Shown: positions 5,707 through 62,808, numbered from the stretch's first letter. The stretch is DNA of 64,000 bases from Candidatus Margulisiibacteriota bacterium (GCA_009691415.1 SICP01000002.1:36547-100546), one strand, 5' to 3'. The notes: generated by a model from the letters alone, not told the origin. Made by a program: numbers and translations.

Positions 5707-5760
5707 TCATCCCCCCCTCAAATTCCCGAATGGGAATTTGAGGGGGGGATGAATGTTACA
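5699..5760. promoter_or_regulatory. 29-bp perfect inverted repeat with a 4-nt loop (tgtaacattcatccccccctcaaattccc-gaat-gggaatttgagggggggatgaatgttaca)
   Basis: Read directly: arms 5699..5727 and 5732..5760 are exact reverse complements. It spans the stop codon of the M32 carboxypeptidase (5756-5758) and the annotated start codon of the MgtC-family gene (5704-5706). It contains C7 and G7 homopolymer tracts. Confidence 0.8.
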
Positions 5761-31000: not shown

Positions 31001-34000
31001 AGAGGTCTATCTGTTGACCTCTCCACCCTTAAATCAGAAAGCACCACTTTTCAAGGTAACGGCACTATCCTTAAAGGAACAAAATATGCAGCCCTTTTCA
31101 ATGGTGGAAACGTCGGAATTGAAACAATCTCTCCAAACGCTACATTACAAATTCAACCGAAAGATACTATTACCTCCCTACAAATCGACACCAAAACACA
31201 GGCCGGCACAGTCATCACCAAAGCTCTCATGGTCAATACCAGTGGAAATACTAGCATCGGCGCAACCTCAAACACCAAACTAACCCTTAAGCTATTAAAC
31301 ACAACGTCATCAGACTCCACCCTACTGATCACAGATTCAAACAAAAACTCCCTTCTCGCTCTCAAAAATAACAATAGAATCGGCATAGGAAATGTAGCAC
31401 TTACCACCGAATTTAATGTGGCTGACCCAATCAAAGCCAAAACACATACAGCACGAACATTGCTCGCAAATACACTCACCATCAACACCGATAAATTAGT
31501 CGTTCTAACCAACGGAAATGTGGGCATTGGTAATACAAATCCTCAAGCTCAACTCCATCTGATTCAAAAACTCACCCGACAACCTGCCTCCAACTTTATT
31601 ATAGAAAACTTAGGCCTTACGGTTGGAGGCACTCCCCTTAGAACAACGTTAACAGGACTCGCGTTAACAATTACATCCAATGCTTACAATTTATTAGGAT
31701 TCGAGAACACACCAAATAAAGGAACCGGCATTAAATTTTCTGCAACTTCTTTGGCACTCGCCACAACATCCACTTTAGTAGGTATCAACGTTAATGTACC
31801 AAAAGGCACCAGCTCAAACAGTACATTAATCAGAGGAGGAAACGTAGGGATAGGAATAACCAATCCAAGCGCCACACTCCATATCGCAGGCACATTAAAA
31901 GTAAGCGGAAATATTCTTCAAACAACAACTGGAAACCTGTCTATTCCTGGAGTAACCGCAAATAAATTAACATCAACCGGAAGAAATACATTTAACACGT
32001 TTAAAGTCCGTGGCTCAGTAAAAAAAGTAGTGATTACAAATAGATTAATTATTAAAGAATCTTCTGTTTCTCTTCTACAAAAAGCCCCCACCACAAATTT
32101 CATTTTATTAAAAAGCAAGACGCTTGCTCGCTTTACACAAGCATCAACAGGAACAAGCAACATCCCATCAAAAAGCGTATTCAATATCGCTGCTCAATTA
32201 CCAACACAAACAGCTATGACACTTCAAAAAGGAACCGTTATAGCAACAAACATGTCCACACTTACGACAAACCGAGGACTCGTAACACTCACGCATGATA
32301 GTTCATTAGATACACCCCCAATACCCGCGTTAAAAATCGGAACAACCGTAACCCCAAATGCACTATTCGTCAGTAATACGGGACAAGCCAGCGTCGGAAC
32401 CTCTTCAAGCCTTGCAAAATTAACAATCATAGAAGGAAGTGCACGATCAACAGCAAAAGCACTCTTAATTACAAGTTCTGCTGGATCCCCTTTATTAACA
32501 GCACTCAACAACACAACAATAGGCTTAGGAACAAAAACTCCGGAAGCCTTAATCCATATCGTAGGTCAAAGTACCCAGCCTAAAGTTCTAAAATTAGCTT
32601 CATCCGTTTCTGAAAACATATTAACCATGCTAGCAAACGGTGCCATTGGCATTGGCATAACTGCCCCCGATAGCGCGCTACAGGTTCAAGGCACATTCAA
32701 AGTTTCATCAGTAAGTACCCCCAATCTTATTTCTGTATCTAATGCAGGAAACGTAGGAATTTGGAAGACCGCAACCGCAAACTATCCTCTCTATCTTGAC
32801 CAAAATATGCGACTAGGAAACAGCACCGACGGAACACTTCCTAAGTATTTTAGGGACCAGTCTAGAAAAAACAGAGGCTTTATTACACAGACTGGCAGTA
32901 ACCACACATTCTTTGGACTTAGAGAAACAGTCACCGGAAATAGCAACTACGCTCCAGTCATTTATTGGGGAAGCAGCAATACAGATGCCTTAACATTCGA
33001 AACCAGCGCCGGACTTGAAGCTGCCAGATTAATCAATAAATCGGTAAGTATCGGCGGCATCATACCAAGTGCAACATTACATATCAGCAATATCAATAAT
33101 ACCACCGCAGCACTACTCACCTTAAAAACTGCAAAACTACCCAATCTACTTACTGTCACAGCAAATGGCTCAATAGGGATTGGAATCGCGCCAACAATTA
33201 ACGCCGATGTCTTTGTCTCAGGATCCATCAAAGCCAAAGGCCTCAAACAACCACCAGGAGGTACAGAATTAACAGCGCCTACTATTAACATCGTCAATTC
33301 AACAACAACCTATTCAAGTTTTTCAGTATCCTCAAATATCCTGTCAGATCATGCGCAAACAGCAGAAGCTATAACTCTTCAACTTGATAAAGATTCTACA
33401 GGAACCTTGATTGGAAAAAGCATAACGTTGTTATCATCTGTTACACAAAACAACGTAAACAAACTCGCTACGACACAACACGGACTACGTGTAGATATAA
33501 GCAATCTTTTTATCGACAAAAATCCAACATTTGGAGACAATATCGCACAAAAATTTGCAGCTGCTTTTAAAGGAGGCAATGTAGGTGTAGGCACAAAAAC
33601 ACCCAAAACAACGTTTGAAGTAACTACCAGAAAAAACGCGCCTGGCAATATCGCTAGTTTCCGAGCAACCCCCAACATCATCCCTGGTGGTAGCACTCCC
33701 GTAAAACAAGCTGATCTCACCTTCACAAGCTACGCCACAGTCAATATTTCCGGACAAAAATTATCTGTCCCTACAGACTCCTTTAAAACCATCGCATACA
33801 CACTAAAAAATGGCCAACTCTTTAATGGCGGCAACACATTCTACGTAACAGACGACATCGCAAAAGATATCATGTCAAAACTTATCCAAAGTAACATCAT
33901 TGACCCCACTACTAGAAACGTACTCCAAACAACTAAAGCGGCCCTGATCACGGCGATTGGTACAGGTTCATCTCCCGGATATTTTAGAGACTACATCACC

Positions 34001-36839: not shown

Positions 36840-37429
36840 TTATAGCCATCAGCATTCTCTCGCTTCTCATAGCCGTTATCTTCCATGAAGTAGCCCATGG
36901 TTATGTAGCCTATCGATTTGGAGATCCCACAGCCAAACTTCAAGGACGAATTAGCCTCAACCCACTTGTTCACATTGACTGGTTAGGCTCTATTATCTTG
37001 CCAGGCATCCTTATCCTTTCGGGAGCTCCATTTCTAATAGGATGGGCAAAACCGGTACCCATCAACCCCAATTATTTTCAAAATCCTCTCCGGGACATGA
37101 TGTGGGTAGCCATCGCAGGGCCACTAACAAATATCACGATAGCCCTCTTTGCCAGCACAGTTTTAAAATTCCATCTCAACAGTGTTCTCGACTATTTTTT
37201 AGTCGTTTCAATTAGTATTAATATCGTACTTGCACTCTTCAATCTTTTCCCCATCCCACCGCTTGATGGATCTCGGATACTCATGTACATAGCCCCAAAA
37301 TCCATCCAACACTTTTTAACATCCATAGAGCCTTACGGGTTTGTTATTCTATTTTTCTTAGTCTATCTCAACGTTTTTCAGAAGATCTTGCCGTTTCTAA
37401 TCCACCCCATATTGGAGGCACTATTATGA
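36836..37429 (+). CDS. site-2 protease family (M50B) integral membrane zinc metalloprotease, 197 aa
   Basis: HEVAHGYVAYRFGD (HExxH) in TM1, LNPLVHIDWLGS, and the ...FNLFPIPPLDGSRIL motif typical of M50B proteases. ATGA overlap with the start of giant gene 2. Confidence 0.8.
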   Translation: MIIAISILSLLIAVIFHEVAHGYVAYRFGDPTAKLQGRISLNPLVHIDWLGSIILPGILILSGAPFLIGWAKPVPINPNYFQNPLRDMMWVAIAGPLTNITIALFASTVLKFHLNSVLDYFLVVSISINIVLALFNLFPIPPLDGSRILMYIAPKSIQHFLTSIEPYGFVILFFLVYLNVFQKILPFLIHPILEALL

Positions 37430-40400
37430 AATGCAAGTTTTTCCAGAAAAGACTCGATATGAAAAATAAGAAAATCAAAAAAAATAAGGGTATAATTGTG
37501 AAAACACTCATGAAAACAAAAACGTTAATCACCCAAGCCCACCTATGGATAGCTATCCTCTTCCTAACTTTGCTTACATCTGTGAGCTTTGCGACTACCC
37601 CAATGGTCTTAACATTTCAGGCTACCCTAGCCAGACAACAAGGAGGACTTATTCAAGGAAGAAACAAAGTAACGATTGGAATATATCCGGGAAATTCAAT
37701 TGAACCCACCTGGATTGAGCCTCACAATAACGTACTCTTTATCAACGGTAGTTGCAGTATCATTCTGGGAAATATACAACCGCTTACCCCAGACCATCTC
37801 AATGTTCCAAATCCTCGCTTCGGACTAAAAGTGGGTAACACTTCACAAATTGCCTATTTTCCTGTTCCATCAACCCCGTATTCCATACAATCTAAACTAG
37901 CTGACAGTGCACTCTCCGTTTCAGCCAACAATATTTCAGGAACCTTCACAAATCCAGTTAGGATTAACGCAAACCTAACTGTAGGCGACACAACCCTATA
38001 TGCCAATCCAACCACAGGAAAAGTAGGTATCGGGACTACCGCCCCCACTTACAAACTGGATGTTGCAGGAATCATTAATGCAACCGGATTTAAAATTAAC
38101 GGCATCGACTTAGAATCTTCATTATCTTGGCAAAAAAAAGCCAATAACGCTCTATACTACACACAAGGAAACGTCGGAATAGCAACACAAAATCCAAAAA
38201 CACGTCTAGAAGTCGCTGGGACCATCAATGCACAAGAAATACGAATCAAAGGCGTTGAACTCTCAATCCTACTTGCCACTCAACTTGCCTGGCGTGAAGG
38301 TGCTAGACCTAAAGACATCTATTTTAATGACGGTACTCAAGAAGGCAATGTAGGAATTGGCACATCGATACCACGATCAAAACTAGATGTTGCTGGAGCT
38401 ATTCGCGTAGGAGAAGCCCAAAGTAACACACTGGGAAGCATTCAATATAAAAACAATGATTTCCAAGGATTTACAAAAACAGGATGGACTTCTTTTGCCT
38501 CTCTATCCGGTATCGGCGCAGCTAATCAAATTCCTTTCTGGACAAATTCCACAGAACTTTCCGGAAGCACTAATTTAGTCTGGGATCGCACACGAAATAG
38601 ATTAGGCATTGGAACAAATAACCCTACAGCACAACTCAGCATGACTGCCATTGACGCCAATCGTGCACTTGTACGCATCGACAATTCATTAGGGAAAACA
38701 CTATTTTATGTAGGCAGTCAAAATGTTGGGATTGGAACATCAACCCCAAATAGCAAACTAACCGTAAAAGGAGTCGTTGATGCGGAAGCCTATCTCGTCA
38801 AAGGGGTTCCTATCGCACAAGCCCTGTCTTCAAACTCATTTTGGGTTTTCCAAAACGATGGACGTATTTACTATGATAAAGGCAACGTGGGAATTGGCAC
38901 AATAAATCCTAAAAATCTTTTAGAACTAGCCGCAGCCCCATCACGAGACCCCATCATTACATTTGATATTGCAAGCAACCCCGCTTTCAGTTTAGGTATA
39001 TCAGCATCAAATCCAAATGCCTTCATATTAGGAAAAGGAGGGGATCTCAAAAACCCAATTTTTGTTTTTAATGGCAATAAAATTGGCGTAGGTCTCACCT
39101 CACCGAGCGCCAATTTACATGTGAGTGGAAACAGCGGCGTTCTTTTCACAGGAACACTAAATAATGGAACTCCCCTTGGCTTAAAAGGTGAAGGCACACG
39201 ACTCGTTTGGCACCCAGGAAAAGCCGCATTTAGAGCAGGTTATGTTAATAGAAAACAATGGGATGAAGAAAATATTGGTCTGTATTCTGTAGCAATGGGA
39301 TATAATCCCTCAGCCAATGGACTTGCATCGGTAGCAGCGGGTGGTTACGAAAGTGATGCAGGCGGAAATTATGCAGTGGTTGCCGGTGGATTCAAAAATA
39401 AGGCAAAAGGTATCCATAGTTTCGCTGCAGGGCACCAAGCATTAGCTCTCCATGCCGGATCATTCGTATGGAGTGATTATTCTCCAACTGCATCAGAAAC
39501 AAGCTTTAAATCAGTAATGTCCAACCAATTTGTTATACGTGCTACAAATGGTGTCGGTATTGGAACAAACCTAACAGCAGGAAATGGGCTCACTGTTGCA
39601 TCAGATTTTAATGACACTTATATCGTAAATGCACTAAAACCAGATGGAACAAGCGCCATGATCATCAACGTATCAGGCAATGTTGGATTGGGAACAACCG
39701 ATCCAGGAATCGCTAAACTTGCTGTCATGAACGGAAAAGTTGGGATAGGAACAACCACACCGATCGCGCAATTAACTCTATCGGGAAGTACACCTGACGG
39801 ATTCCAATTTGTCGCTTATAAAAAAACAGGAGTACCCGCATTCTTTATAAAAAACGACGGCAGAATCGGAATCGGAAAACCTCTAAACTATGTATTCGCT
39901 GATGACATCTATTTGGCTATTTCAGGCGCTATTGTAGGCAATGCCTTTGCCATACAAAATCCAAATGGAAGTCAGACACAGTTAGAAAGTAATCCAGGAT
40001 CACCTTGGGCCATCCCTTCTGAAAATCTTAACAGCACTTTCTTCAATAAAGGCTTTGTAGGAATAGGAACAAAAGCACCTGCAAGTCTTCTGGAATTGTC
40101 CAACGCCGCCTCATCAACTCGAAATCCAGTCATTACATTCGACACAGATGGCGTCAAAAGATTTAGTTTAGGTACAACTGCAAATGTATTTACTATTCAA
40201 AAAGGTGGCACTATCAATAGTAAAAACCCACTTTTCGCACTCACAGATAATGGTAACGGGGGTGGTGGCGTTGGCATTGGCATTGGTTACAAAACCCCCA
40301 GCGCCTCTCTACATGTCAGTGGCAATTCTATGTTTACCAGTAAAGTCGTCATTGCCACAACCAATACCACGCAGATCTATGACTTAACTGTAGAGGGAGC

Positions 40401-43400
40401 AATAAATGTCAAAACACTATTTATAAACGGAGATCAATTTATCCCTCAACCTAACCCATGGAAAACAAATGAACTAGACATCTACTACCCAAGCGGAAAC
40501 GTGGGAATCGGAACAAGAACCCCTAGTGCAAAACTTGAAGTTATTGGAACTGTTTCTGCCAATCAGATCATACAACGTGATGCATTCATACTAAACGGAA
40601 ACCTCACGACAAACAAATTGAGACTCAAAGATACCAGCGCCAATGTAACCCAGTACGGAGAACTTGCAGTCACAAACGAAGAACTGATTTACATAGATCC
40701 CGCTAGAAACCTCAAAGTTATTTCATCTCCATTAAGACGAAATTCTAATGCAGCTTTTGACGGAAAACTTGCGTATTGGATCGACAACTCTACTGTCGGC
40801 GTAAGCAATATTTTATGGAAACATGCAACTAACGAATTAGTCCTATCAGGCAATTTGGTTGTGAATGCCTCTTCACAAGAAACAGATGGATTCACAGCGC
40901 TCTCTCATGTGTCAATGGGACTTCCAAATGCTCTCGAAATCACAAGCACTATCAATCATGGAGGTGATTTAAGAACAGTAAGAAGCTACACAGGACAAAA
41001 CATCCTCGTAAACGTACAGAAAAACTGGGGAAATATTAACTCCGCTGTTTCGGTAAAAGGTCTAGACATTATCATGCAACAAACTGCTAACAATCTCTTT
41101 TTAAACAAAGCCAAAGCCATAGGCCTCAACGTCGATATGTCTAGAGTAAATGTTGATGTAATAGGAGGCGGAAAAAAAGCAGCTGCCATCTTTACAGGAG
41201 GCTTTGTAGGTATTGGCACAACAAATCCTAAAACAGCACTCGAAGTAGTAGGAACTGTTTCCGCAAATTATTTTAACCTAACCGGCGGATTAACTGTTCC
41301 AGAACTCTTTGTTAATACAGATGCACTTGTTGCATACAAAGATGTATCCACACAAACTCCTCGCGTAGGTATAGGCACAACAAGTCCTAGAACAGAATTA
41401 GATATTATTGGAACGGTATCTGCAAATGTATTTAATGTCGCAAATACATTTACAGTAGCAACACTCAATGTAAATAAAGGCGCTTTATTCGTAAATAGTG
41501 CTGGAAATATTGGAATTGGTACCACACAACCCAATGGGCAAATTGAATTAAAGAAAATACTCAGCACCACCCCTAGCTCACCTTTCTTTGCAGAAAAGAT
41601 TGGCGTCACAATAGATGGTGCAGGAAAAGATCAAACCTTTGCCTTCAATAAAAATTTAAGCGGTTTAGACATTACCTTAGACTCAGAAACAGGAAGCCAA
41701 ATTGGAAACGGTAAAATCGCAACAGGTGTAAGTGTCAATTTAACAAATCTAGAACTTGATCCAGCAAGCACCGCTGTAGGACTTAATGTGAATGTAACAG
41801 GCACAACAGGCAAAAGATTTGCCGCCATTTTTACAGGGGGCCGTGTAGGTATAGGCGTCACACAACCCTTAGCAGAACTACACGTAAGTGGCAGTATCAA
41901 AGCAGACAATCTAGTACTTGAAGGTACTTTAGAAGCAAATATAGCCACATTTAACAGACTCACAATCAATCAAACCGGTCTATTTAACAATTCTGTAACT
42001 ATTAATACACTTACTGTACTTGGAAAGCTAAGCGCAAATTCACTTGTACTCAGCACCCCCTTAATAGCCGGACAAGGAACCTTTTCAACCCTTAATGCAC
42101 AAGTCGCATCCTTCAATAAAGTCACGCTAAATACACTCACCGTAAACAGTATAAATGGCAGCGCTACAACAGCCACACTTAATACACTCACCGTTACAGG
42201 AAAAACACGTGCGCAATCCGTCATAATCACCAAGAGCCTAACCCTCACAAATGCAACGATGAACATCAATAACAATACACTCGTGGTCACGACTAGTAAA
42301 AATGTAGGTATCGGTACAAGAACCCCCCTTACCATCCTACATGTCGAAAATGCCAATGCAAACGTATTTTCAGCTGAAAATAACAATACATGGAATACAA
42401 TACGCATTCAAAACAACAACAATGCCGCAAATTCCGCAGCATCTATTTTATTGGTTCCTGATGAGAGACACCCCTCATTCAGCATTGGCTCAGGCATCTC
42501 CGCAGTCAGAAGTAATAGCAGCATAAATTCTGGGTCAGACCTAGTATTTGTCACCGATAGAAATAGCAGTGCTCCAGTAGAGGGAATGCGCATTACAGAA
42601 GCAGGAAATATTGGTATTGGCACATCAACACCCAAAGCCCAACTCGATGTACAAGGAACAGCTTGGTTCAATAGCACTGTAACCATAAATGGCACATTAG
42701 GTGTAGGAACACTCAATAGCACAAACAATTTAACGATTAATACACCCAGGGGGAAAAGTATCTTTCAAAATACCGTTTCTGCCAATGCCAGCATACAAAT
42801 ACAAAACGGTTTATTTTTCAAAGGAACCACACCACCTACAACACAAGCAGGTTATGGAGCTCTCTATATGCTTAGTACAGACAAAAATCTATACTACCAA
42901 AGTCCAGCAGGAACCAGCATTAACCTAACCGCCGCCTATACAGGTAGAAATGGTATTATTCCATTCTTTAACGCCAAAAACAGCCTCGATGATACAGCGC
43001 CCCTTTACTGGAACAACACCAGCAAAACACTCACCGTAGGAACCGGCAATATCGTGAGCAATGTCAAAATTGTCAGTGTGATTGATAACAGTACCAATCC
43101 AACAGAATTTGCAGGACAAAATATATCGCTTGAATTCGGAAACCGTACAACAGCCAGCACCACTGTATTTTCAGGATTAAATATACAGCTTAAAGGCCAA
43201 ACCCCTAACGATCCCTTTACATTCGGACGCTTAGCTCAAAACGAAGTTGCAATAGGATTAAATGTAGATGTCAGTAACCTAGCTGCACGTCGAACCAATT
43301 CTCTAGGAAACAATCTCACAGGATTTAAGTACGCCGCAATATTTACTGGTGGCAGTGTCGGCATCGGCAATAAAACGCCCATTGCATCACTACATATCAC

Positions 43401-46400
43401 TACAGATGTAACAGGAAATCCAAGTCTAATTGTAGATAGCAAAAGTTCTTCAGGAACCCTCATACAAAATGCACTCGTTGTCTCCAGTAACAGTTTTGTA
43501 GGTATAGGAACGGCCGCACCATTAGCAAGACTTCATGTCGTTGGCTCTGACAGCAGCACAAACAATGCCGCCTTAAGAATTGTAGATACTGGAGGCAGCA
43601 CGCTACTAATCGTTAAAAATAACGGTAACGTAGGTATCGGCAAATCCAACCCACAATCCAAACTAGATATCAACGGAACATTAACCGCGACAACCGGTAG
43701 TTTTGATGGTGTGACCGCAACAACATTAAATGTTGGCAATGGAAATCTTTTTGTGAATGCCAGCGGCAATGTAGGTATCGGTACCATAACCCCCACTGGA
43801 AATATTAACTTTTTCAAGAGAATTACTTCATCCAATATCCCTGTTGGAAGCTTCACTTCACAAAAAATGGACCTCATCATATCTGGAGGAACCGTCAATA
43901 ATTTATTTAGCCTTAATAAAGACATTACAGGTATTAATCTATCCCTAAGCTCCGAAGCCAATAACGTCCTTGCTGCCAGTAAAACAGCAACAGGAATTAA
44001 AATTGATATGAGTCCATTAAAAACGGAAACAAACACAACCGTAACCGGGTTAGATATTGATGTAACAGGTACAACGGGCACTCGATATGCCGCGCTCTTC
44101 CAAGGAGGTAATGTAGGAATTGGGCTGACACAACCCACCACCGCACTACACGTCTCTGGAAATATCAAAACAACCTCTTTAATCAGTGATGGAAGTATCA
44201 ACGTCGGGACTGTCACAGCCAATAGCTTACACATAGCAGGAGACGCTAGGTTTACAGGCAGTGTAACCATTAACACATTAGAAGCAACCACCGTGTCTGC
44301 AAACAATTTAACACTCACAGGAACACTCACATTAGAAAAAGCAAATCTTAGTATACTCACTGGCACAACAGCCAAATTCACCCAACTAGGAATCGGAGTC
44401 TCTCCTAATAACGCCTTAGACGTCAGTGGAAACTTAACAGTGGCCAAAGGAAGAATCGGTATCGGAATCACTGCTCCAACAGCCCTGCTCCATCTCTCAT
44501 CCCTCAACCAAAACGCTCTGGTGATTGATGTCAAAAACAGCACAACAACGACACGAAATGTACTCTTGGTAAATAGTATAGGATACGTCGGCATCAGCAC
44601 TGCCAACCCAAGTGCCAAACTCAGCATCGTGGCAGACAATAGCAGCGCCACCAACTATGCCTTAAAAATTAACAACCTCACTAAAAATATTTTAACGTTA
44701 CAAAATGATGGCAACATGGGCGTTGGAACCGCCAATCCACAAGCGATTCTCCACACCGTTGGCACAGCCAGCACGGCTCCACTACGAATTGACACCAATA
44801 CGATCTCCTTTGCATTGGTTGCAAGCCAAAACGGTAGAATTGGTGTAGGCACAGCCAATCCACAAGCATTACTACATATCGTCAACAGTAATATCTCTCC
44901 ATTCAAAGTAGGCACTGCTACACAACCCAACGCACTATTGGTTGATAACAATGGACGTGTAGGAATTGGTAGTAGTAGTTTAACCTTCCCATTAAATGTG
45001 AGTGGAAACATGTTATTAGGATCAGACCCTTCCGGCAGCAGCATAGCCTCTTGGATTAGCAGCTCAAAAACAGCAGGGGTACTCGCAAGTAGAGGAACTA
45101 AATATGCATTCTTCGGAGCGAAAGAAAAAACATCTGGATCCAATAATTACAATGCAGTAGTCAGCTGGAAAACCGGCGACACACTTACATTTGAAAATAG
45201 CACCAACCCATTATTATACATTCAAGGAAATGGACAAGTTGGAATAGGGTCTACCTCAAATGCACAATTAAACGTGAGTGGAAACAGTACTACGCCACTC
45301 CTTCAAATCGGTACGGCAAGCTCACCTTTTGCACTGATCGTTTCAGGAAATGGCCGCGTAGGAATTGCGACTTCCAACCCCTCCGCAGAACTAGCCATCA
45401 ACGGAACTTTAATGGCCAAAAAACTAACCATCTTAAGTGATACAGTCAGTGTATCTACCCTCAACGTCACAAAGCAATTAACAATATTTCGCACGATTAC
45501 AAATGTAACTAAGCCAGCAACAGCGCAAAGTATTACACTCAATTTAGGAGCAGACGTTGCCAACAACATCGTTGGATTAGACATCAATCTCAAATCATCC
45601 TTACACAGCTCTTTAAGTAGAAACAATGCCCTATACAACGCAAATGCCTATGGATTAAAAGTAGATATGACCAATCTTGAAATCACAGATCCCACTCTTG
45701 GAAATTCCTCTAATGGCAATAAATACGCAGCAACATTTACAGGAGGTGCAGTCGGTATCGGAACATCCAAACCATCCGTATTATTCCAAGTCATCGGTGC
45801 TGCGGGTGGAGACATTGCTCAATTTGGCACACTCGAAAATGCAGCCCTCACAATCCAAGATGTGGATACAGGGTTAATGCGAATAAATTTAGTAGATCAA
45901 ACAGATACGTTAAGCAAACACGAAACCCTCGTCTTTTATAAAGACATCGTTGGTATCGGCACAAATACAGACACCATCAAAGCAGAAGATTCTAATACTA
46001 AATTACTTGTAAATGGTGATGTGAGAGTCGGTGTATTAAGAACCACAGGCCAACTTAACATGGCAGGAGTCACAGACCCACTAAATGAACCCAGAGCCTA
46101 TGGAGCAAAACTTTATTTCTCAGGAGCGGCAGACGTATCAACCCAATATGATAACGACAACAATAGTCCTTTATGGATGGCCCGATATAATAGAGGCAAC
46201 GAAATTTCTGAATTACGCGTCAACGTCGGGAATGGAGACGGTGATAAATTTGTTGTAGGTACCGGAATAGGCGGCAGCACCTTCAAACCTATTCTAATTG
46301 CTATTCCAAAAAGTACTTCAGGTGCAAATAGAGTTGGCATCACAGATGGAACCGTCAATAACTTTACCCCCACCGCACCATTACACGTCATCGGTAGTAC

Positions 46401-47187
46401 ATCAGGATCTTCAGGATCCGCATCAAGCCATCTTGTAGTGATAGAAAATACAGGGGGTGCAAGTTCAGACAGTCTTGTTATCTGGCATAATGGCTACCTC
46501 GGATCACCAGGCAATACAAAAGTACCAACCACGTCCAACTTCATTACATTCATGGACAAAACAAATATACTGGGTGAAATCGAAGGGAGTGACGGGAACG
46601 GTGTACGGTTTAAAACAGCCGGAGCAGATTATGCAGAATATCTTCCTAAAATAGACCCTGCCGAAAAAATTAATAAAGGGGATATCGTCGGGGTCTTTAA
46701 CGGCAAGATCAGCAAAAATACAGACGGTGCAACACAAATCATGGTCCACAGTACAGCCGCAGGTGTTGCAGGAAACTGGCCTGGCAAGAAAAATATCGGA
46801 AATTATGAACTCATCGCATTTTTTGGGCAAGTCAAAGTCAACGTTACAGGTCCTGCACATAAAGGTGATTTCATTCTACCGTCCAATAAAAATGACGGGA
46901 CTGGCATAGCCGTACCAGAACAAAATATTCACTCCGAACAAATCTCACAAATTCTAGGACGCGTATGGGAAGATAAGCCTGGAAATGAAACCGCAACCGT
47001 TCTAACGGCAGTTGGATTCAATTTTAGTATCCCATCACTCAGAAGTGAGAGTGCCGCCATTTCAACACTTAAAACTGAACTAGAAAATCTCCAAAATCAA
47101 CAGCAAGAATTAAGTAATCAATTCGAACAAAAACTAGAAGCACAAAATAAAGAAATTGACGCATTGCTACTAAAGCTGAAAAAATAA
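37426..47187 (+). CDS. giant secreted fibre-like repeat protein, 3253 aa (paralogue of 25076..35449)
   Basis: Uninterrupted 9.8-kb ORF. The hydrophobic signal-like segment LWIAILFLTLLTSVSFA follows a Lys-rich 45-aa leader; an alternative start MKTKTL lies at about 37510. It has the same architecture as giant 1. The conserved N-terminal domain (FPVPSTPYSIQSKLAD is equivalent to FTSTPYSMRTKVAE) is present. The SxAxG block is at 39185..39480. The GxVGIGT signature is very frequent. The conserved C-terminal module begins at about 46538, with GADYAEY and a terminal coiled coil. Confidence 0.85.
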   Translation: MKCKFFQKRLDMKNKKIKKNKGIIVKTLMKTKTLITQAHLWIAILFLTLLTSVSFATTPMVLTFQATLARQQGGLIQGRNKVTIGIYPGNSIEPTWIEPHNNVLFINGSCSIILGNIQPLTPDHLNVPNPRFGLKVGNTSQIAYFPVPSTPYSIQSKLADSALSVSANNISGTFTNPVRINANLTVGDTTLYANPTTGKVGIGTTAPTYKLDVAGIINATGFKINGIDLESSLSWQKKANNALYYTQGNVGIATQNPKTRLEVAGTINAQEIRIKGVELSILLATQLAWREGARPKDIYFNDGTQEGNVGIGTSIPRSKLDVAGAIRVGEAQSNTLGSIQYKNNDFQGFTKTGWTSFASLSGIGAANQIPFWTNSTELSGSTNLVWDRTRNRLGIGTNNPTAQLSMTAIDANRALVRIDNSLGKTLFYVGSQNVGIGTSTPNSKLTVKGVVDAEAYLVKGVPIAQALSSNSFWVFQNDGRIYYDKGNVGIGTINPKNLLELAAAPSRDPIITFDIASNPAFSLGISASNPNAFILGKGGDLKNPIFVFNGNKIGVGLTSPSANLHVSGNSGVLFTGTLNNGTPLGLKGEGTRLVWHPGKAAFRAGYVNRKQWDEENIGLYSVAMGYNPSANGLASVAAGGYESDAGGNYAVVAGGFKNKAKGIHSFAAGHQALALHAGSFVWSDYSPTASETSFKSVMSNQFVIRATNGVGIGTNLTAGNGLTVASDFNDTYIVNALKPDGTSAMIINVSGNVGLGTTDPGIAKLAVMNGKVGIGTTTPIAQLTLSGSTPDGFQFVAYKKTGVPAFFIKNDGRIGIGKPLNYVFADDIYLAISGAIVGNAFAIQNPNGSQTQLESNPGSPWAIPSENLNSTFFNKGFVGIGTKAPASLLELSNAASSTRNPVITFDTDGVKRFSLGTTANVFTIQKGGTINSKNPLFALTDNGNGGGGVGIGIGYKTPSASLHVSGNSMFTSKVVIATTNTTQIYDLTVEGAINVKTLFINGDQFIPQPNPWKTNELDIYYPSGNVGIGTRTPSAKLEVIGTVSANQIIQRDAFILNGNLTTNKLRLKDTSANVTQYGELAVTNEELIYIDPARNLKVISSPLRRNSNAAFDGKLAYWIDNSTVGVSNILWKHATNELVLSGNLVVNASSQETDGFTALSHVSMGLPNALEITSTINHGGDLRTVRSYTGQNILVNVQKNWGNINSAVSVKGLDIIMQQTANNLFLNKAKAIGLNVDMSRVNVDVIGGGKKAAAIFTGGFVGIGTTNPKTALEVVGTVSANYFNLTGGLTVPELFVNTDALVAYKDVSTQTPRVGIGTTSPRTELDIIGTVSANVFNVANTFTVATLNVNKGALFVNSAGNIGIGTTQPNGQIELKKILSTTPSSPFFAEKIGVTIDGAGKDQTFAFNKNLSGLDITLDSETGSQIGNGKIATGVSVNLTNLELDPASTAVGLNVNVTGTTGKRFAAIFTGGRVGIGVTQPLAELHVSGSIKADNLVLEGTLEANIATFNRLTINQTGLFNNSVTINTLTVLGKLSANSLVLSTPLIAGQGTFSTLNAQVASFNKVTLNTLTVNSINGSATTATLNTLTVTGKTRAQSVIITKSLTLTNATMNINNNTLVVTTSKNVGIGTRTPLTILHVENANANVFSAENNNTWNTIRIQNNNNAANSAASILLVPDERHPSFSIGSGISAVRSNSSINSGSDLVFVTDRNSSAPVEGMRITEAGNIGIGTSTPKAQLDVQGTAWFNSTVTINGTLGVGTLNSTNNLTINTPRGKSIFQNTVSANASIQIQNGLFFKGTTPPTTQAGYGALYMLSTDKNLYYQSPAGTSINLTAAYTGRNGIIPFFNAKNSLDDTAPLYWNNTSKTLTVGTGNIVSNVKIVSVIDNSTNPTEFAGQNISLEFGNRTTASTTVFSGLNIQLKGQTPNDPFTFGRLAQNEVAIGLNVDVSNLAARRTNSLGNNLTGFKYAAIFTGGSVGIGNKTPIASLHITTDVTGNPSLIVDSKSSSGTLIQNALVVSSNSFVGIGTAAPLARLHVVGSDSSTNNAALRIVDTGGSTLLIVKNNGNVGIGKSNPQSKLDINGTLTATTGSFDGVTATTLNVGNGNLFVNASGNVGIGTITPTGNINFFKRITSSNIPVGSFTSQKMDLIISGGTVNNLFSLNKDITGINLSLSSEANNVLAASKTATGIKIDMSPLKTETNTTVTGLDIDVTGTTGTRYAALFQGGNVGIGLTQPTTALHVSGNIKTTSLISDGSINVGTVTANSLHIAGDARFTGSVTINTLEATTVSANNLTLTGTLTLEKANLSILTGTTAKFTQLGIGVSPNNALDVSGNLTVAKGRIGIGITAPTALLHLSSLNQNALVIDVKNSTTTTRNVLLVNSIGYVGISTANPSAKLSIVADNSSATNYALKINNLTKNILTLQNDGNMGVGTANPQAILHTVGTASTAPLRIDTNTISFALVASQNGRIGVGTANPQALLHIVNSNISPFKVGTATQPNALLVDNNGRVGIGSSSLTFPLNVSGNMLLGSDPSGSSIASWISSSKTAGVLASRGTKYAFFGAKEKTSGSNNYNAVVSWKTGDTLTFENSTNPLLYIQGNGQVGIGSTSNAQLNVSGNSTTPLLQIGTASSPFALIVSGNGRVGIATSNPSAELAINGTLMAKKLTILSDTVSVSTLNVTKQLTIFRTITNVTKPATAQSITLNLGADVANNIVGLDINLKSSLHSSLSRNNALYNANAYGLKVDMTNLEITDPTLGNSSNGNKYAATFTGGAVGIGTSKPSVLFQVIGAAGGDIAQFGTLENAALTIQDVDTGLMRINLVDQTDTLSKHETLVFYKDIVGIGTNTDTIKAEDSNTKLLVNGDVRVGVLRTTGQLNMAGVTDPLNEPRAYGAKLYFSGAADVSTQYDNDNNSPLWMARYNRGNEISELRVNVGNGDGDKFVVGTGIGGSTFKPILIAIPKSTSGANRVGITDGTVNNFTPTAPLHVIGSTSGSSGSASSHLVVIENTGGASSDSLVIWHNGYLGSPGNTKVPTTSNFITFMDKTNILGEIEGSDGNGVRFKTAGADYAEYLPKIDPAEKINKGDIVGVFNGKISKNTDGATQIMVHSTAAGVAGNWPGKKNIGNYELIAFFGQVKVNVTGPAHKGDFILPSNKNDGTGIAVPEQNIHSEQISQILGRVWEDKPGNETATVLTAVGFNFSIPSLRSESAAISTLKTELENLQNQQQELSNQFEQKLEAQNKEIDALLLKLKK
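38166..45400 (+). repeat. array of degenerate protein-level repeats in giant gene 2 marked by the G-N-V-G-I-G-T-x-x-P signature
   Basis: Examples at 38166, 38350, 38722, 38884, 40498, 42298, 42607, 43636, 43765 and 44110. A near-tandem subarray lies at 44700..45000 (VGTANPQAILH / VGTANPQALLH). Confidence 0.7.
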
Positions 47188-56642: not shown

Positions 56643-57392
56643 CTACATCTGCATCCCCCCATCAACATGAAGTACCTGGCCTGTTGTGTAAGCTGCCAAA
56701 TCAGAGGCCAAAAATGAAACCATCTCTGCAACTTCACGAGCAGAACCTAATCGCTTCTGAGGGATAGAAGCCATTATAGTATCAAGATAATCTTTAGGTA
56801 AAGATTGAATCATGTCTGTCTCAATAAATCCGGGGGCCACAACATTGCACGTAATATTTTTTGCACCAAATTCACGCGCAATCGATTTGCTAAATCCGAT
56901 AATCCCCGCTTTAGATGCAGCATAGTTAGCCTGTCCAGCATTACCCATCACCCCAACAACTGAACTAATATTCACAATACGACCATACCGATTTTTAAGC
57001 ATGGGTTTTAAAACTGCCTTCGTAAAATTAAACACCGAATTTAAGTTCACAGAAATCACATCCGTCCATTCTTCCAAAGACATACGCAACATTAAATTAT
57101 CCCGAGTAATCCCCGCGTTATTCACCAAAATATCAACACGACCAAATTTTCCTATAACCGTTTTTACAACAGAGGCCCCATCTTCAAAAGAAGAAACATC
57201 CGCCGCAATCCCTATACAAGCTACGCCATACGTTTCTTGCAACGCAGCCGCTACTTCATCACACACCGATTGCCGCGTCGACACACACACGATATTGGCA
57301 CCATATGACGCCAACGTATCCGCAATCGCATACCCAATCCCGCGCGACGCACCTGTAACAATCGCTATTTTATTACTGAGGTCCATTTTCAA
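56643..57392 (-). CDS. fabG: 3-oxoacyl-ACP reductase FabG
   Basis: SDR fold: TGASRGIG, NNAG, YAASKAG. 249 aa. Confidence 0.95.
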   Translation of the reverse strand: MKMDLSNKIAIVTGASRGIGYAIADTLASYGANIVCVSTRQSVCDEVAAALQETYGVACIGIAADVSSFEDGASVVKTVIGKFGRVDILVNNAGITRDNLMLRMSLEEWTDVISVNLNSVFNFTKAVLKPMLKNRYGRIVNISSVVGVMGNAGQANYAASKAGIIGFSKSIAREFGAKNITCNVVAPGFIETDMIQSLPKDYLDTIMASIPQKRLGSAREVAEMVSFLASDLAAYTTGQVLHVDGGMQM

Positions 57393-58299
57393 TTCCTTTA
57401 ATACTTTCTAAGTCCGACACCGAAACCATCGGCAACTCCGGCACAATCTTTCGACACAATCCCGATAATACTTTACCTGGTCCACATTCGACCAACCGAT
57501 CTACATGCTGCGCCATATACTGAATCGAACCAATCCAGTTAACAGGAGAAATCACCTGCAAAGACAAATTCTCTTTTAACTGAGTCGCGTCTATTTCTGA
57601 AAGCGCAGTACGATTTAAAATGACAGGAATCTGAGCAGAAGAAAAAAAATTATCTTGCAAAAAATCGCCTAATTTTTGAGATCCAGAAGCCATCAAAGGT
57701 GAATGAAAAGCCCCACTCACATTCAATACAATCGCACGACCACCCTCTTTAGATAAGAGCTCGCAGGCTTCAGCTACCCCAGCTTTTTTACCAGAAATAA
57801 CAATCTGACCTGGGCAGTTCAAATTGGCAGCAACCACGGGCCCTTCTTTGACAGAAGAAACAATCCGTTGAATCACTTTCAACTCCACTTTCATAATAGC
57901 CGCCATAGCAGAATCGTCGGACGGATAAGACGCCGCCATAGCCGCCCCTCGCACCTGAATCACGCGCAACGCATCTTCAAAACTAAGAACGCCCGCCGCA
58001 TAATACGCTGTAATTTCACCCAAGCTATGTCCAGCAACCATCGCAGGCACAATTCCGGATCTCTTCAACAACAACAACAAAGCTGCTGATACCAAAAAAA
58101 TAGCAGGCTGGGCATTAGCAGTCTGTGTTAAAATCTCATCCGGCCCGTCAAAACAAATAGACGAAATATCGTAGCCCAACACTTTATTCGCGCTTATAAA
58201 TAACTCTCGTACTTCAAAATATTGATCATAAAGATCTTTCCCCATCCCCACTTTTTGAGAGCCCTGCCCGGGAAAAACAAATCCAATTCGTGTCATCAA
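57373..58299 (-). CDS. fabD: malonyl CoA-ACP transacylase FabD
   Basis: GQGSQ and GHSLGE active-site motifs. 308 aa. Confidence 0.95.
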   Translation of the reverse strand: MMTRIGFVFPGQGSQKVGMGKDLYDQYFEVRELFISANKVLGYDISSICFDGPDEILTQTANAQPAIFLVSAALLLLLKRSGIVPAMVAGHSLGEITAYYAAGVLSFEDALRVIQVRGAAMAASYPSDDSAMAAIMKVELKVIQRIVSSVKEGPVVAANLNCPGQIVISGKKAGVAEACELLSKEGGRAIVLNVSGAFHSPLMASGSQKLGDFLQDNFFSSAQIPVILNRTALSEIDATQLKENLSLQVISPVNWIGSIQYMAQHVDRLVECGPGKVLSGLCRKIVPELPMVSVSDLESIKGIENGPQ

Positions 58300-58361
58300 A
58301 ATGCCATCCTATTCATTAAAATAAAGTCACAAAATCATTCTAACAAACAAGATGGCTTTTA

Positions 58362-59074
58362 GTAACTAACGACTCTGCGTTTCCAACCGAACCATACGCT
58401 TCAACAAATCGTCCTGATCCTCTTTCAATTTCTTATTTTCTTTTTCAAGCGCAATCACATAAAGCGTCAATTCTTCAATTTTCTGCATATACAATTTCTA
58501 CATCGCACCCACACTCACCCCCTTCGCAACAACTACTTTTTCCGAAGGCACATCAGACAAGTGTTTTTGGATCAAAATAAACGATAATAGTCCCAACCAA
58601 TTCAAGTTTTTGTGTGGGCGCAACCATCACATCTCGAAAACCATACCGTGTTCCATCATAGTATTGAGGCTGGAATTTTATAATCCCTGAGTATCCACCC
58701 AGACTCGCTTTTCCGACGGAAATTCTTGCAACTCCAAACGTTTCTCTATTCCAACCACCTACCATTTCAAGAGAAACATCTTGTTTATTACTTACGTCTA
58801 CAATAGACAGTTTTGATGTTGGAGATGTAGTCCCAACCCCAACATTACCAGCATCTTTTATCCGGACAAGCTCCCCAGATCGGTGCTTTGTACTTGATAA
58901 AAATATAATATCTGCCCCCTGTCTATTTTGTATATATGTCGCACGCCTATCTCTATTATGATAAATCTCAGACCCACTATTATTCCCATTCAAATAAATA
59001 GAACTACTCTGCACGAAAGCAAGTGACTACATGCCACAGAAAAGAAAATTTAAACTTAAGTTTTTGATTTTCAT
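58362..59074 (-). pseudogene. decayed miniature paralogue of the giant fibre-protein family (signal peptide + one GNVGVGT unit + C-terminal coiled coil) inserted in the fab operon
   Basis: On the minus strand, ATG 59074 with an AAGGAG RBS gives MKIKNLSLNFLFCGM, then an in-frame TAG (59027-59029). The same frame then continues as the 153-aa ORF 58553..59014 containing AGNVGVGTTSPTSKLSIVDVS. After a TGA and a +1 shift, a second in-frame TAG is followed by MQKIEELTLYVIALEKENKKLKEDQDDLLKRMVRLETQSR (58488..58365). This mirrors the coiled-coil C-termini of the giant proteins. Confidence 0.55.
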
Positions 59075-59083
59075 ATATCTCCT

Positions 59084-59123
59084 TTTTCTTGCAAAGATAT
59101 ACGATGATACAAAGTAACGTCAA
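59084..59123 (-). promoter_or_regulatory. putative sigma70-like promoter (TTGACG -16- TATATC) plus AAGGAG RBS upstream of the mini-paralogue remnant, inside the fab operon
   Basis: Read from the minus strand: ttgacgttactttgtatcatcgtatatctttgcaagaaaaaggagatatATG. It could also act as an internal promoter for fabD-fabG-acpP-fabF. Confidence 0.35.
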
Positions 59124-59154
59124 TGCTTTTTTAATACAAATAAATACTTACGTC

Positions 59155-60114
59155 CTAATAGGCCCAGCGGAGCAATGTCGTACCCCAGGTAAACCCTGCG
59201 CCAAAACCTGCCAAGAGTACTACGCTCCCCCGCTTTAGACGTCCACCCTGTTTCGCATCGCATAAGGCCATAGGAATTGACGCCGCTGACGTATTACCAT
59301 AGATCTCAATCATCTTCATGACATGATCTTCAGGAATACCCAAACGCTCCCGTGTGGCCTCTATTATACGCAAGTTGGCTTGATGCATCACAAGCAAATC
59401 CACGTCCGAACCCACCAGTCCATTTTTTTTCAAAATCGCCTCTACTGCAGGAACAACCGCATTGACAGCCACTTTAAATACAGCGCGTCCATCCATATAA
59501 ATATGAGACGGCCCGTCTGGCTTTACTTGTAAAATATCTGCATAAGATCCATCAGAATATAATTTCGAATCAATCAGCCCAAAACCGTCTGGAACCCGGC
59601 CAACAACACAAGCCCCTGCACCATCCCCAAACAAAATACAAATACTACGATCCGTCCAATCCACATGACGACTCAGCACATCTCCTGCCACAACCAAAAC
59701 GTATCGACAAGCTCCCGTCGCTACATATTGCTCCGCCATAGAAAGCGCATAGTTAAATCCGGTACAGGCAGCAGAGACATCTACTGCCCCAATATCTGTT
59801 CGTAAACCCAAACGATCCTGAAGTAAACAAGCCGTCGAAGGAAACAATGCATAATCGGGAGTCGAAGTTGCCACAATGACCATATCAATATCTGTAGGCT
59901 GAATCCCTGCATCTTTAATAGCTTCTTGAGAAGCGCCATACGCCAAATGAGACGTCCGAGTCTCAGCGTCCGCGATACGTCGCTCACGAATACCTGTACG
60001 CGAAACAATCCACTCATCTGTTGTATCCAAACCACCAGCCACTAGATCCTGATTAGTCACAATAGTATTGGGCACGCATTTTCCGACACCTACAATGCCG
60101 ACAGGGAAATTCAC
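59155..60114 (-). CDS. fabH: 3-oxoacyl-ACP synthase III FabH
   Basis: 319 aa. Active-site AACTGF Cys context, and HQANLRI / GNTSAAS motifs. Confidence 0.95.
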   Translation of the reverse strand: MNFPVGIVGVGKCVPNTIVTNQDLVAGGLDTTDEWIVSRTGIRERRIADAETRTSHLAYGASQEAIKDAGIQPTDIDMVIVATSTPDYALFPSTACLLQDRLGLRTDIGAVDVSAACTGFNYALSMAEQYVATGACRYVLVVAGDVLSRHVDWTDRSICILFGDGAGACVVGRVPDGFGLIDSKLYSDGSYADILQVKPDGPSHIYMDGRAVFKVAVNAVVPAVEAILKKNGLVGSDVDLLVMHQANLRIIEATRERLGIPEDHVMKMIEIYGNTSAASIPMALCDAKQGGRLKRGSVVLLAGFGAGFTWGTTLLRWAY

Positions 60115-61112
60115 GTACGCAATGCAGCAGAAATCTGCTGAACAATCTGACCTTCAACCGAACGCATCGCTGTACCAATAGCATTCTTGATAGCTAACGC
60201 GCTTGAGCTTCCATGAGCAATAATAGAAACGCCATCAACACCCAATAACGGCGCCCCACCATACTGCTCATGATCATATCGTTTTATAAATTTCTTTAAA
60301 CTCGACTTCAATAAAAAAAGACCCAACATAGAGAGAAGAGATCTTTTAGCTTCTGTTTTAAAAAAATTCATAAAAAGAGACGTCACCCCTTCTCCAAATT
60401 TCAATAACGTATTTCCCACAAACCCATCACACACCACTACATCTACACTTCCAGACAAAATATATTTACTCTCAATATTACCCACAAAATTCAGAGGTAA
60501 TTGCTGCAATAATTCAAAAGCAGCTTGTGTTTGCTGATTCCCTTTTTCAACTTCTTCACCAATATTTAACAACGCCACCCTGGGTTTTTGAACACCCAAC
60601 ATAATTTTTGAAAAACAATTCCCCATCGTCGCAAATTGCGCCAAATGCTCCGGCTTACAATCAATAGAAGACCCAATATCTAACAAAACAAACGGCGTGG
60701 TCTTTGTCGGCAAAACAGACGCAATAGCAGGACGTTCTACATTGGGAATTCTACCCAATATAAACGTAGACGCCATCATTACAGCTCCCGTATTCCCAGC
60801 AGACACAAACGCATCTGCACCGCCCTCTTTGACCAACCGCAAACCTACCTGGATGGACGACTCTTTTTTCTTACGAAAAGATACCGCGGGAGATTCCCCC
60901 ATACCCACCACATCTGGAGCATGGTGAATTGAAAGACGTGGATGGGGCCAACACGATTTAAATTCAGATACAGAAAGAGCAGCCATAAGCTGCTCTTGGG
61001 GACCCACTAAAATAATTTCAACCGAAAATTCATCAACCGCTAGAAAAGCCCCCTTAAGAACTTCTCCAGGGGCATAATCACCGCCCATCGCGTCTAGTCC
61101 GATTTTAAGCAA
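60111..61112 (-). CDS. plsX: phosphate acyltransferase PlsX
   Basis: 333 aa. MLKIGLDAMGGDYAPGEVLKGA N-terminus typical of PlsX. 4-nt overlap with fabH. Confidence 0.95.
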   Translation of the reverse strand: MLKIGLDAMGGDYAPGEVLKGAFLAVDEFSVEIILVGPQEQLMAALSVSEFKSCWPHPRLSIHHAPDVVGMGESPAVSFRKKKESSIQVGLRLVKEGGADAFVSAGNTGAVMMASTFILGRIPNVERPAIASVLPTKTTPFVLLDIGSSIDCKPEHLAQFATMGNCFSKIMLGVQKPRVALLNIGEEVEKGNQQTQAAFELLQQLPLNFVGNIESKYILSGSVDVVVCDGFVGNTLLKFGEGVTSLFMNFFKTEAKRSLLSMLGLFLLKSSLKKFIKRYDHEQYGGAPLLGVDGVSIIAHGSSSALAIKNAIGTAMRSVEGQIVQQISAALRT

Positions 61113-61310
61113 TTAATCTGCCTTTTTTGTTTTTTCTTTGATAACCAATACCTGTTTCCCGTTATAGACACCACAGTCAGGACACACACGATGTTGAACA
61201 ATCAACGCGCGGCAAGCTGCACAAGGAACCAAATTTGGTGTTTCAATTTTCCAATTAGCGTGATGTGAACGTTTTTTAGACTTGGATCGTCTACGTTTTG
61301 GTACTGGCAT
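61113..61310 (-). CDS. rpmF: 50S ribosomal protein L32
   Basis: MPVPKRRRSKSKKRSHH... C4 zinc ribbon: CxxC...CxxC. Confidence 0.9.
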   Translation of the reverse strand: MPVPKRRRSKSKKRSHHANWKIETPNLVPCAACRALIVQHRVCPDCGVYNGKQVLVIKEKTKKAD

Positions 61311-61386
61311 TTTTTTTCCTACCTACTAAAAATTAAAAACAAGAGAACTCATAATACGGGCTCTCACAACTATCGTCAAGAAAGGT

Positions 61387-62808
61387 CTATACGTCATAAT
61401 ACAGCGCGAACTCCCAAGGATGTGGACGCAAGTTCATTTCATGCACTTCTTTAGTCATCTTATACTGAATCCAAGTTTGGATCACATCTTCCGTAAACAC
61501 ATCGCCCTTCAATAAAAACGCATGGTCTTTTTCAAGTTCAGCTAAAGCTTCTCTTAATGTCTCTGGAGTCTGAGGAATCTTAGATAACTCTTCAGGCGGA
61601 AGCTCATAGATGTCTTTGTCCATAGGTTCGCCCGGATCAATCTTATTAGCAATACCATCAAGCGCCGCCATTAAGATCGCTGAAAATGCCAAATACGGAT
61701 TGCTACTTGCATCTGGACATCTAAACTCAAACCGCTTCGCCTTCTCTGAAGAATGGTACATCGGAATGCGAATAGCAGCGCTTCTGTTACGTCGTGAATA
61801 CGCAAGATTAACAGGGGCTTCAAATCCAGGAACCAACCGCTTGTAGCTATTGGTCGTAGGGTTTGTAAATGCCAACAACGCTCGTGCATGCTTCAAAATG
61901 CCACCAATCGCATACATCGCCATCTCGGTCATGCCACCATACCCATCGCCTGCAAATAAATTTTTATTGGCTTTCCAAATTGAAAAGTGAACATGCATGC
62001 CCGATCCATTATCGTTATACAAAGGCTTAGGCATAAAAGTAACCGTCTTATCATGTTGATTCGCTACATTTTTGATAACATATTTATATTTCATCAAATT
62101 ATCAGCCATCGTCACAAGAGAGTTAAAGCGAATAGCAATTTCGCCTTGTCCACCTGTAGCAACTTCATGATGCTGGGCTTCTGTCTCAATACCAACATCT
62201 TGAAGAGTCAACATCATCTCACTGCGAAGATCATGATGTTTATCCGTAGGCGGAACTGGAAAATAACCTTCTTTGTTACGCGGCTTATATCCCAAATTAG
62301 GATATTCTTCACGACCTGTATTCCATCGTCCTTCCACAGAATCCAAATGATAAAAACCTTGATTTTGTGTTTGGTCAAACCGAACATCGTCAAAAATAAA
62401 AAACTCTGCTTCCGGTCCAAAAAAGGCAATATCCCCTACACCCGTAGAAGCCAAATATTTCTCTGCTTTTTTCGCAACATTACGAGGGTCACGACTATAA
62501 TCTTCGCCTGTAACGGGGTCGCAAATATCACAAACCATCACCAATGTTTTATGCTCCATAAACGGATCCATAAACGCCGTATTGGCAACAGGCTTAACCA
62601 ACATGTCAGACTCATTAATCGCCTGCCAACCACGTATACTGGATCCATCAAAACCAAATCCTGTTTCAAATGCATCTTCGTCAATACGATGTGAAGGAAC
62701 TGTAAAATGCTGCCAAGCCCCCAAAAAATCAACAAACCTCAAGTCAACCAGAGCAATTTCTTCTCTCTTAAGTAAATCCACAACATCTGTGGGTAATTTT
62801 ATATCCAA
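61387..62808 (-). CDS. glnA: glutamine synthetase type I
   Basis: 473 aa. ...[16 protein letters not shown]..., [28 protein letters not shown]. Confidence 0.95.

Follow-up and report, generated by a model that had tools for sequence, protein, structure and literature searches.

Introduction

The closest described counterparts of the gene considered here encode the MAT fibres of Bdellovibrio bacteriovorus, which are defined by a signal peptide, an N-terminal beta-rich domain of ~130 amino acids (aa), capping-loop beta-helix repeats, and an S74 chaperone or other tip (PMC10769870). The ~130-aa beta-rich domain follows the signal peptide in 21 of 21 MATs (Caulton et al. 2024, PMC10769870). The same fibre repeat and capping loop are found in S74 phage tail fibres and spikes, among them the K1F endosialidase and the T5 L-shaped fibre, and in MyRF of animals.

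Here we describe the remains of a gene for a small fibre protein between fabH and fabD in a Candidatus Margulisbacteria metagenome-assembled genome (MAG; GCA_009691415.1). The whole stretch of DNA that was analysed, 64,000 nucleotides (nt) in length, is referred to as the window. The family to which this gene belongs resembles the MAT fibres in combining a signal peptide with an intertwined beta-helix fibre and a VG..xxPxxxL capping loop, in its mosaic evolution with exchanged modules, and in that a non-S74 C-terminal domain can stand in for the S74 chaperone. Unlike the MATs, its members lack the ~130-aa beta-rich domain, with the first capping loop lying at residue 33 in three orthologues of the gene (family median, 36). 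They are also 200 to 416 aa long, against ~1000 aa for MATs, they carry a C-terminal module that is a distinct fold and ends in a coiled coil, and the host here is not a known predator. Set against the S74 systems, the small family shares the fibre repeat, and its C-terminal module begins exactly where the S74 domain of MyRF begins.

Remains of a gene in the fabH-fabD spacer

Read on the minus strand from fabH to fabD, the locus is laid out as follows (L084, L086 and L087 are the corresponding loci of three related genomes).

59155-60114, minus: fabH (beta-ketoacyl-ACP synthase III), the upstream flank, with TAG as its stop codon (NCBIfam PRK09352, 402 bits; TIGR00747, 374 bits)
58300-59154, minus: fabH-fabD spacer, 855 bp
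59096-59123, minus: promoter-like element, TTGACG (59123-59118), 16 nt, TATATC (59101-59096)
59084-59079 and 59074-59072, minus: Shine-Dalgarno AAGGAG and ATG of the dead gene; AAAAAGGAGAT is kept in L084, L086 and L087
59027-59071, minus: signal-peptide remnant MKIKNLSLNFLFCGM and first nonsense codon (TAG, 59029-59027), which is CAG (Gln) in L084 and L086 in the DNA alignment
58586-59026, minus: body remnant in the original frame, making up most of the annotated 153-aa open reading frame (ORF), with one intact capping loop (GNVGVGTTSPTSKL)
58553-59014, minus: 153-aa ORF, with TGA (58555-58553) as its stop codon
58584-58585, minus: junction of the 89-nt deletion, with 90 nt in the orthologues versus 1 in the window
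58369-58583, minus: C-terminal module remnant (SFILIQKHLSDVPSEK...KIEELTLYVIALEKEN... coiled coil) in the +1 frame; homology resumes at 58584
58500-58498, minus: second nonsense codon (TAG), which is CAG in 3 of 3 orthologues
Up to 58368-58366, minus: 40-codon coiled-coil ORF MQKIEELTLYVIALEKENKKLKEDQDDLLKRMVRLETQSR, ending at the stop codon TAG 58368-58366
58292-58368, minus: the stop codon TAG (58368-58366) followed by an RNA hairpin of 31 pairs
57373-58299, minus: fabD (ACP S-malonyltransferase), the downstream flank, likely starting at the ATG at 58296 (TIGR00128, 306 bits)

The initial annotation had described this locus, on the minus strand, as an 855-bp insert comprising a ribosome-binding site (RBS), a TAG, a 153-aa ORF, a TGA with a +1 shift, a second TAG and a 40-aa coiled coil. 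That observation was real, and all of these elements are present, as are the TTGACG-16-TATATC hexamers and the strong AAGGAG RBS that it had reported. The reading frame of the gene is interrupted in the window by two TAG codons, one TGA and the frameshift, and the spacer is more AT-rich than the genes on either side of it (GC, 0.32 to 0.43 versus 0.45 to 0.49). GenBank lists the 153-aa ORF as a hypothetical protein (EXS67_00980). A search for terminal inverted repeats or target duplications around the insert returned short chance repeats only, and insertion as a mobile element was ruled out on that basis. Compared with known RNA families, the spacer gave only a sub-threshold snoRNA match (E = 0.47).

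Intact orthologues at the same site and loss of the gene in this genome

The initial annotation had pointed to the syntenic fab operons of related genomes as the place to look for an intact small copy. Three sister genomes of Candidatus Margulisbacteria carry one between fabH and fabD:

L084 (GCA_945898045.1), between fabH and fabD: 308-aa orthologue (P0004)
L086, between fabH and fabD: 404-aa orthologue (P0002)
L087, between fabH and fabD: 294-aa orthologue (P0003)

The fabH and fabD genes of these loci are ~86% identical to those of the window at the nucleotide level. When a stop-bridged reconstruction of the window gene was used as a protein query, it returned 923 protein matches, with P0002, P0003 and P0004 the nearest. 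The N termini (MKIKNLSLIFLFCGMQSLAFAQSS) and C termini (…SMQKLHMQKIEELTLYVIALEKENKKLKEAQDDLLKR…) of these three proteins are nearly identical to the corresponding window pieces. At the N terminus, the window's MKIKNLSLNFLFCGM-TAG-SLAFV/QSS, interrupted by the first nonsense codon, aligns with the orthologues' MKIKNLSLIFLFCGMQSLAFA/QSS.

DNA alignment with the orthologues places an 89-nt deletion between GGx-xCx-ATT and TCG-TTT, where ~30 codons (KATDIIISQASWADFVFEPGYRLRPLPELE) have been removed. The frame does shift here, as the reported "+1 frame change" implied, and the cause of the shift is this deletion. The lost stretch held the family-invariant residues D219 and V221 and the near-invariant F222, Y226, L228 and L231, and with them went the first half of the C-terminal module. 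Where the ends can be aligned, 13 further replacements in the window copy fall at positions on which the three intact copies agree, against equivalent counts of 0 in L084, 1 in L086 and 5 in L087. Nine of the 13 fall in the C-terminal remnant, including a change of the near-invariant HLP to HLS, and the -1 Ala of the signal-peptidase A-x-A site has become Val. The ratio of nonsynonymous to synonymous changes is 13:4 in the window copy versus 6:10 in the three intact copies pooled (Fisher p = 0.037).

In the window, a profile built from 53 members of the family (profile A1) recognizes only three parts: the N terminus, a single fibre unit and the latter half of the C-terminal module. The C-terminal remnant matches profile positions 244-314 (E = 2.9e-30), the one intact loop, VGVGTTSPTSKL, lies in the match to positions 68-147 (E = 5.7e-13), and the last window loop lacks the GxVGIG core. 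The capping-loop pattern [VIL]G[VIL][GN]xxxPxxx[LVI] occurs intact once in the window and two to four times in the orthologues; the "one-unit body" of the initial annotation is accordingly a product of decay and not the original architecture. The body of the window gene has no nucleotide similarity to the bodies of the orthologues, and lesions within it, such as the missing GxVGIG core, are probable ones, read from the protein profile only.

We interpret the spacer as a unitary pseudogene, the remnant of one ~265-codon gene that underwent an ordinary, recent loss in this genome (probability, roughly 0.9). Two C-to-T nonsense mutations (CAG to TAG) broke the gene, the 89-nt deletion shifted its frame and cost it the first half of the C-terminal module, and unconstrained amino acid replacements have accumulated afterwards. 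A functional fibre is presumably no longer made from the dead gene, although in a formal sense a truncated product of the 153-aa ORF could still be. The locus should be annotated as a pseudogene and not as a 153-aa hypothetical protein. By itself the pseudogene matters little: one strain has recently lost an accessory surface protein.

A hairpin over the fabD ribosome-binding site and a promoter-like element

The 66 nt between the pseudogene stop codon and fabD fold into a hairpin of 31 base pairs, 8 of them G.U pairs, a feature that the initial annotation had not mentioned. Folding is strand-specific (-29.9 kcal/mol in the sense versus -7.2 kcal/mol in the antisense orientation), and in context the hairpin reaches -37 kcal/mol (z = -4.8), ranking 3rd in stability among 25,570 stretches after GC correction. 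Its sequence is unique in the window. In the predicted structure, pairing takes up the whole of the fabD Shine-Dalgarno sequence AGGAUGG (58310-58304) and of the UUGAUG start region, and the stop codon of the remnant lies at the first base pair. Standard terminator prediction found no terminator between fabH and fabD; the segment 54190-54545, folded as a terminator reference, gave no useful comparison because it is a coding region.

An identical hairpin is present in L086, where the gene upstream of it is intact, and none is present in L084, where a toxin-antitoxin pair separates the fibre gene from fabD. At 58235-58479, the window is identical to L086 at 242 of 245 nt, within surrounding DNA that is ~88% identical; this block takes in the codons of the coiled coil, the spacer and ~65 nt at the start of fabD. 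The block may be a recent recombination tract or may reflect unusually strong constraint. The identity with L086 was rejected as proof of selection on the hairpin, being part of this 245-nt near-identical block.

The predicted geometry would suit translational coupling by hairpin opening, and we put forward such a role as a hypothesis. A ribosome that finishes translation at the foot of the hairpin, where the stop codon lies, would open the stem over the fabD Shine-Dalgarno sequence and start, and the remnant would then not be inert, since its terminal 40-codon ORF and the hairpin would serve as a translational coupler or regulator of fabD. The strand specificity, the G.U pairs and the outlying stability of the hairpin are consistent with this proposal, as are the position of the stop codon, the pairing of the start region, and the distribution of the hairpin between L086 and L084; the overlap of fabH and fabD in relatives without the insert also suggests ancestral coupling. 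However, the upstream ORF is broken here and its terminal 40 codons have no recognizable Shine-Dalgarno sequence. There are, furthermore, only two distinct hairpin-bearing sequences, both identical and thus offering no covariation; their identity may simply be that of a recombination tract, and leaky termination or stabilization would be alternative roles for the hairpin. On balance we consider a present-day regulatory role for the remnant unlikely. A broader scenario, in which a horizontally acquired fibre gene was wired into the fab operon and coupled fabD translation through the hairpin, its promoter-like/RBS block, short ORF and hairpin being kept as a leader after its death, and in which the C-terminal module may be a new trimerization or anchoring device replacing the S74 chaperone, is speculative, and we would hold it with little confidence. 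On the reading that we prefer, an ordinary unitary pseudogene, the promoter-like/RBS block and the 3' end probably stay because fab-operon transcripts must cross both. How an operon accommodates an inserted gene could be tested concretely on the hairpin that covers the fabD ribosome-binding site.

The promoter-like element was read by our scan tool as TTGACG-18-TATCTT, with 9 of 12 positions matching. Promoter-like matches are not enriched in the surrounding region (9 in 57300-61400 versus 8.1 +/- 3.3 in shuffles). The -35 hexamer is identical in 4 of 4 orthologous loci and the spacer between the hexamers varies. Conservation of the -35 hexamer and RBS with a varying spacer would fit a working promoter, and an internal promoter is plausible on these grounds.

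Among all local structures of the window, the most stable by a wide margin is a perfect hairpin of ~29 bp (-56 kcal/mol) at 5696-5770 on the plus strand. On one side it overlaps the beginning of a minus-strand ORF (4996-5706), and from there it extends across the short gap into the ORF at 5756-7231.

A large family of small fibre proteins with a distinct C-terminal module

The intact gene would have encoded a Sec-exported, phage-tail-fibre-like protein consisting of a signal peptide, a body of beta-helix repeats and a C-terminal module of ~100 aa. The body repeats are of the intertwined beta-helix type solved in the Bdellovibrio MAT fibres, closed by the V-G-I-G-T-T-x-P-x-x-K-L capping loop, and the module ends in a long helix (coiled coil). 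Signal-peptide cleavage and Sec export of the product are likely from its N-terminal sequence, and a trimeric fibre with an adhesin function would be in keeping with this architecture.

The assignment of the body to the MAT and tail-fibre fold is based on both sequence and structure comparisons. The family profile matched Bd2133 (8ond) in the PDB at E = 3.7e-29, followed by 8oml (6.4e-15) and 8ojn (7.3e-11), and it also matched Bd1334, Bd3182 and Bd2439. For an AlphaFold monomer model (pLDDT 77), the top Foldseek matches were MAT fibres at probability 1.0, and the top matches in BFVD were S74-type phage tail fibres. The PHROGs tail-fibre families match the repeat region only, and MyRF matches the family profile at positions 184-214 only. 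Neither the window pieces (Pfam and NCBIfam) nor the intact members (Pfam) gave any match above cut-off.

The complete C-terminal module (W-x-D-[FY]-V-F...Y-x-L...KHLP-x-VPS...KIEELTLY plus the long helix) is represented in the window by its second half only. The module was modelled with confidence (pLDDT 89); it matched no solved structure by sequence or fold (best E = 4), and no model in a 2025 copy of Pfam matches it. A profile of the module alone (A2) has 34,346 representatives at E<=1e-10 among 1.84 billion cluster representatives (50% identity). A few of the proteins matching this profile carry two or three copies of the module.

The module also stands apart from the S74 chaperones, with which it has no structural match. 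C-terminal segments gave no match to Peptidase_S74 (PF13884) at E<=10, and S74 is absent from the 25 most-matched Pfam families listed for the 53 members at E<=1. The catalytic SDxxxK motif occurs in 0 of the 53 members, and the closest orthologues carry Ala at the position of the S74 Ser. Taken at the level of profiles and motifs, the gene belongs to a separate, undescribed and very large family defined by the KHLPxVPS...KIEELTLY module.

Tandem arrays of up to eight same-strand paralogues were found at 23 of 82 sampled loci (L094, L096, L108, L141, L156, L159 and others). The array at L094 adjoins a DUF6443/ribonuclease (Rhs-like toxin) gene. Small secreted proteins with repeats of the MAT/tail-fibre type occur in Margulisbacteria, Bacteroidota and others, and their genes often form tandem arrays. 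Despite its great abundance, the C-terminal module that these proteins share has no counterpart in Pfam or the PDB.

Relation to two giant fibre-repeat proteins

The window also encodes two giant fibre-repeat proteins, and the initial annotation had viewed the spacer gene as a miniature of these, either a small paralogue in decay or a minimal unit of ancestral type:

25076-35449, plus: giant ORF, 3457 aa, fibre-repeat protein
37426-47187, plus: giant ORF, 3253 aa, fibre-repeat protein

There is a real resemblance. The motif AGNVGVGTTSPTSKL recurs in both giant ORFs, a strict regular expression finds 14 capping loops in the first and 23 in the second, and the giants likewise have VGIGTTxPxxKL units, a signal-peptide-like N terminus and a terminal coiled coil. 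Intact small proteins align with them at 27 to 38% identity over 100 to 350 aa, with E values down to 5e-10.

The likeness does not extend beyond the repeats, however. Each giant has its own long N-terminal domain and an intramolecular chaperone (IMC) of the Peptidase_G2 type (PF11962, 28.4 and 20.2 bits), for which the small family scores nothing, and neither giant carries the small family's C-terminal module. Alignment of the family profile with the last 300 aa of the giants by hhalign recovered one capping loop only, and blastn of the insert against the window returned only chance-level similarity, with nothing longer than 18 to 40 nt. The best relatives of the small gene are instead hundreds of proteins of 200 to 416 aa from other phyla that carry its own C-terminal module. 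Descent of the gene as a paralogue or ancestral unit of the giants is therefore very improbable. The part of the earlier view that stands is the common fibre repeat and capping loop; the part that does not is membership in the giant family, since the N-terminal and Peptidase_G2-type domains are absent from the small gene. By these comparisons the small gene is related to the giants at the fibre-repeat level only. Gene conversion from the giants was also considered and was ruled out by the lack of nucleotide similarity in blastn.

In the giants, the Peptidase_G2-type domain lies ~150 aa ahead of the terminal coiled coil. Their sequences suggest auto-processed giant fibres of the MAT or tail-spike kind.

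Recoding and assembly error as alternative explanations

Reading of TAG as glutamine occurs in some recoded phages and bacteria. Were this the case here, together with a programmed +1 frameshift, the gene could be alive; its in-frame TAG codons do align with Gln (CAG) codons of the orthologues, as TAG-to-Gln recoding would give, and its RBS and start codon are intact. Yet fabH, on the same transcript, ends at TAG, the orthologues use CAG at these positions, and a TGA also stands in the way. The frame change, moreover, coincides with the 89-nt deletion of invariant residues of the C-terminal module, and the excess of replacements at conserved sites indicates relaxed selection. The initial annotation had called recoding unlikely, and with fabH ending in TAG, the deletion, and CAG in the orthologues, we would go further and regard it as exceedingly improbable.

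Sequencing or assembly errors in an intact gene, which do occur locally in metagenome-assembled genomes such as this one, are a scarcely credible explanation, given that the Logan assemblies of three runs (SRR8561391, SRR12053440 and SRR12053441) are 100% identical to the window, with L003 covering the whole insert, that an ENA assembly has identical 153-aa and 40-aa ORF calls, that loss of 89 nt is atypical of a consensus error, and that the window copy has its 13 extra replacements. As three separately assembled runs are identical here, the stops and the frameshift therefore belong to the organism and not to the assembly, which bears out the earlier call of a pseudogene. The three identical assemblies may nevertheless sample one population, and an intact allele could segregate elsewhere.

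Age of the insertion and mosaic structure of the intact genes

In relatives whose FabH is 56 to 59% identical, fabH and fabD are adjacent or overlapping, and the fibre gene is carried only by a clade with FabH identity of at least 93%. Because fabH and fabD are adjacent or overlapping in the distant relatives, the insertion is derived, recent and clade-specific. The gene was inserted between fabH and fabD in the forebear of a narrow clade of Candidatus Margulisbacteria, and in the three sister genomes it is intact to this day.

The toxin-antitoxin pair of L084, of the FitA-like/PIN type, lies at 8969-9645 between the fibre gene and fabD, and a near-consensus promoter-like sequence, TTGACA-17-TAAAAT, lies ahead of it at ~8934-8962. 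Given this pair, the fabH/fabD junction has taken at least two insertions in the clade. The closest relative beyond the clade, whose FabH is 65% identical (L088 3301-3912 and L089 1220-1781), has ~520 nt downstream of fabH in which no gene is called. The gene beyond this stretch is not fabD, the fab operon being broken at the same junction in a different way.

The three intact copies are constant over ~110 nt at the start and ~310 nt at the end, whereas the body is mosaic, with some blocks shared and others not. Surface or receptor-binding proteins typically show this combination of fixed ends and an interchangeable middle, and we infer that diversifying selection has acted on the body. The clade thus keeps a variable gene inside an essential lipid-synthesis operon, despite its surface-protein-like mosaic body.

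The idea that the family habitually lands in housekeeping operons was set aside as anecdotal, as the survey of 82 loci found mostly tandem arrays (23) or singletons beside other secreted proteins. One member, in Roseivirga sp. (L095, 7001-8185), prompted this idea: much like the gene in the fab operon, it lies within a row of arginine-biosynthesis genes, with argG, argC, argD and argF on one side of the fibre gene and argB, argE and argH on the other.
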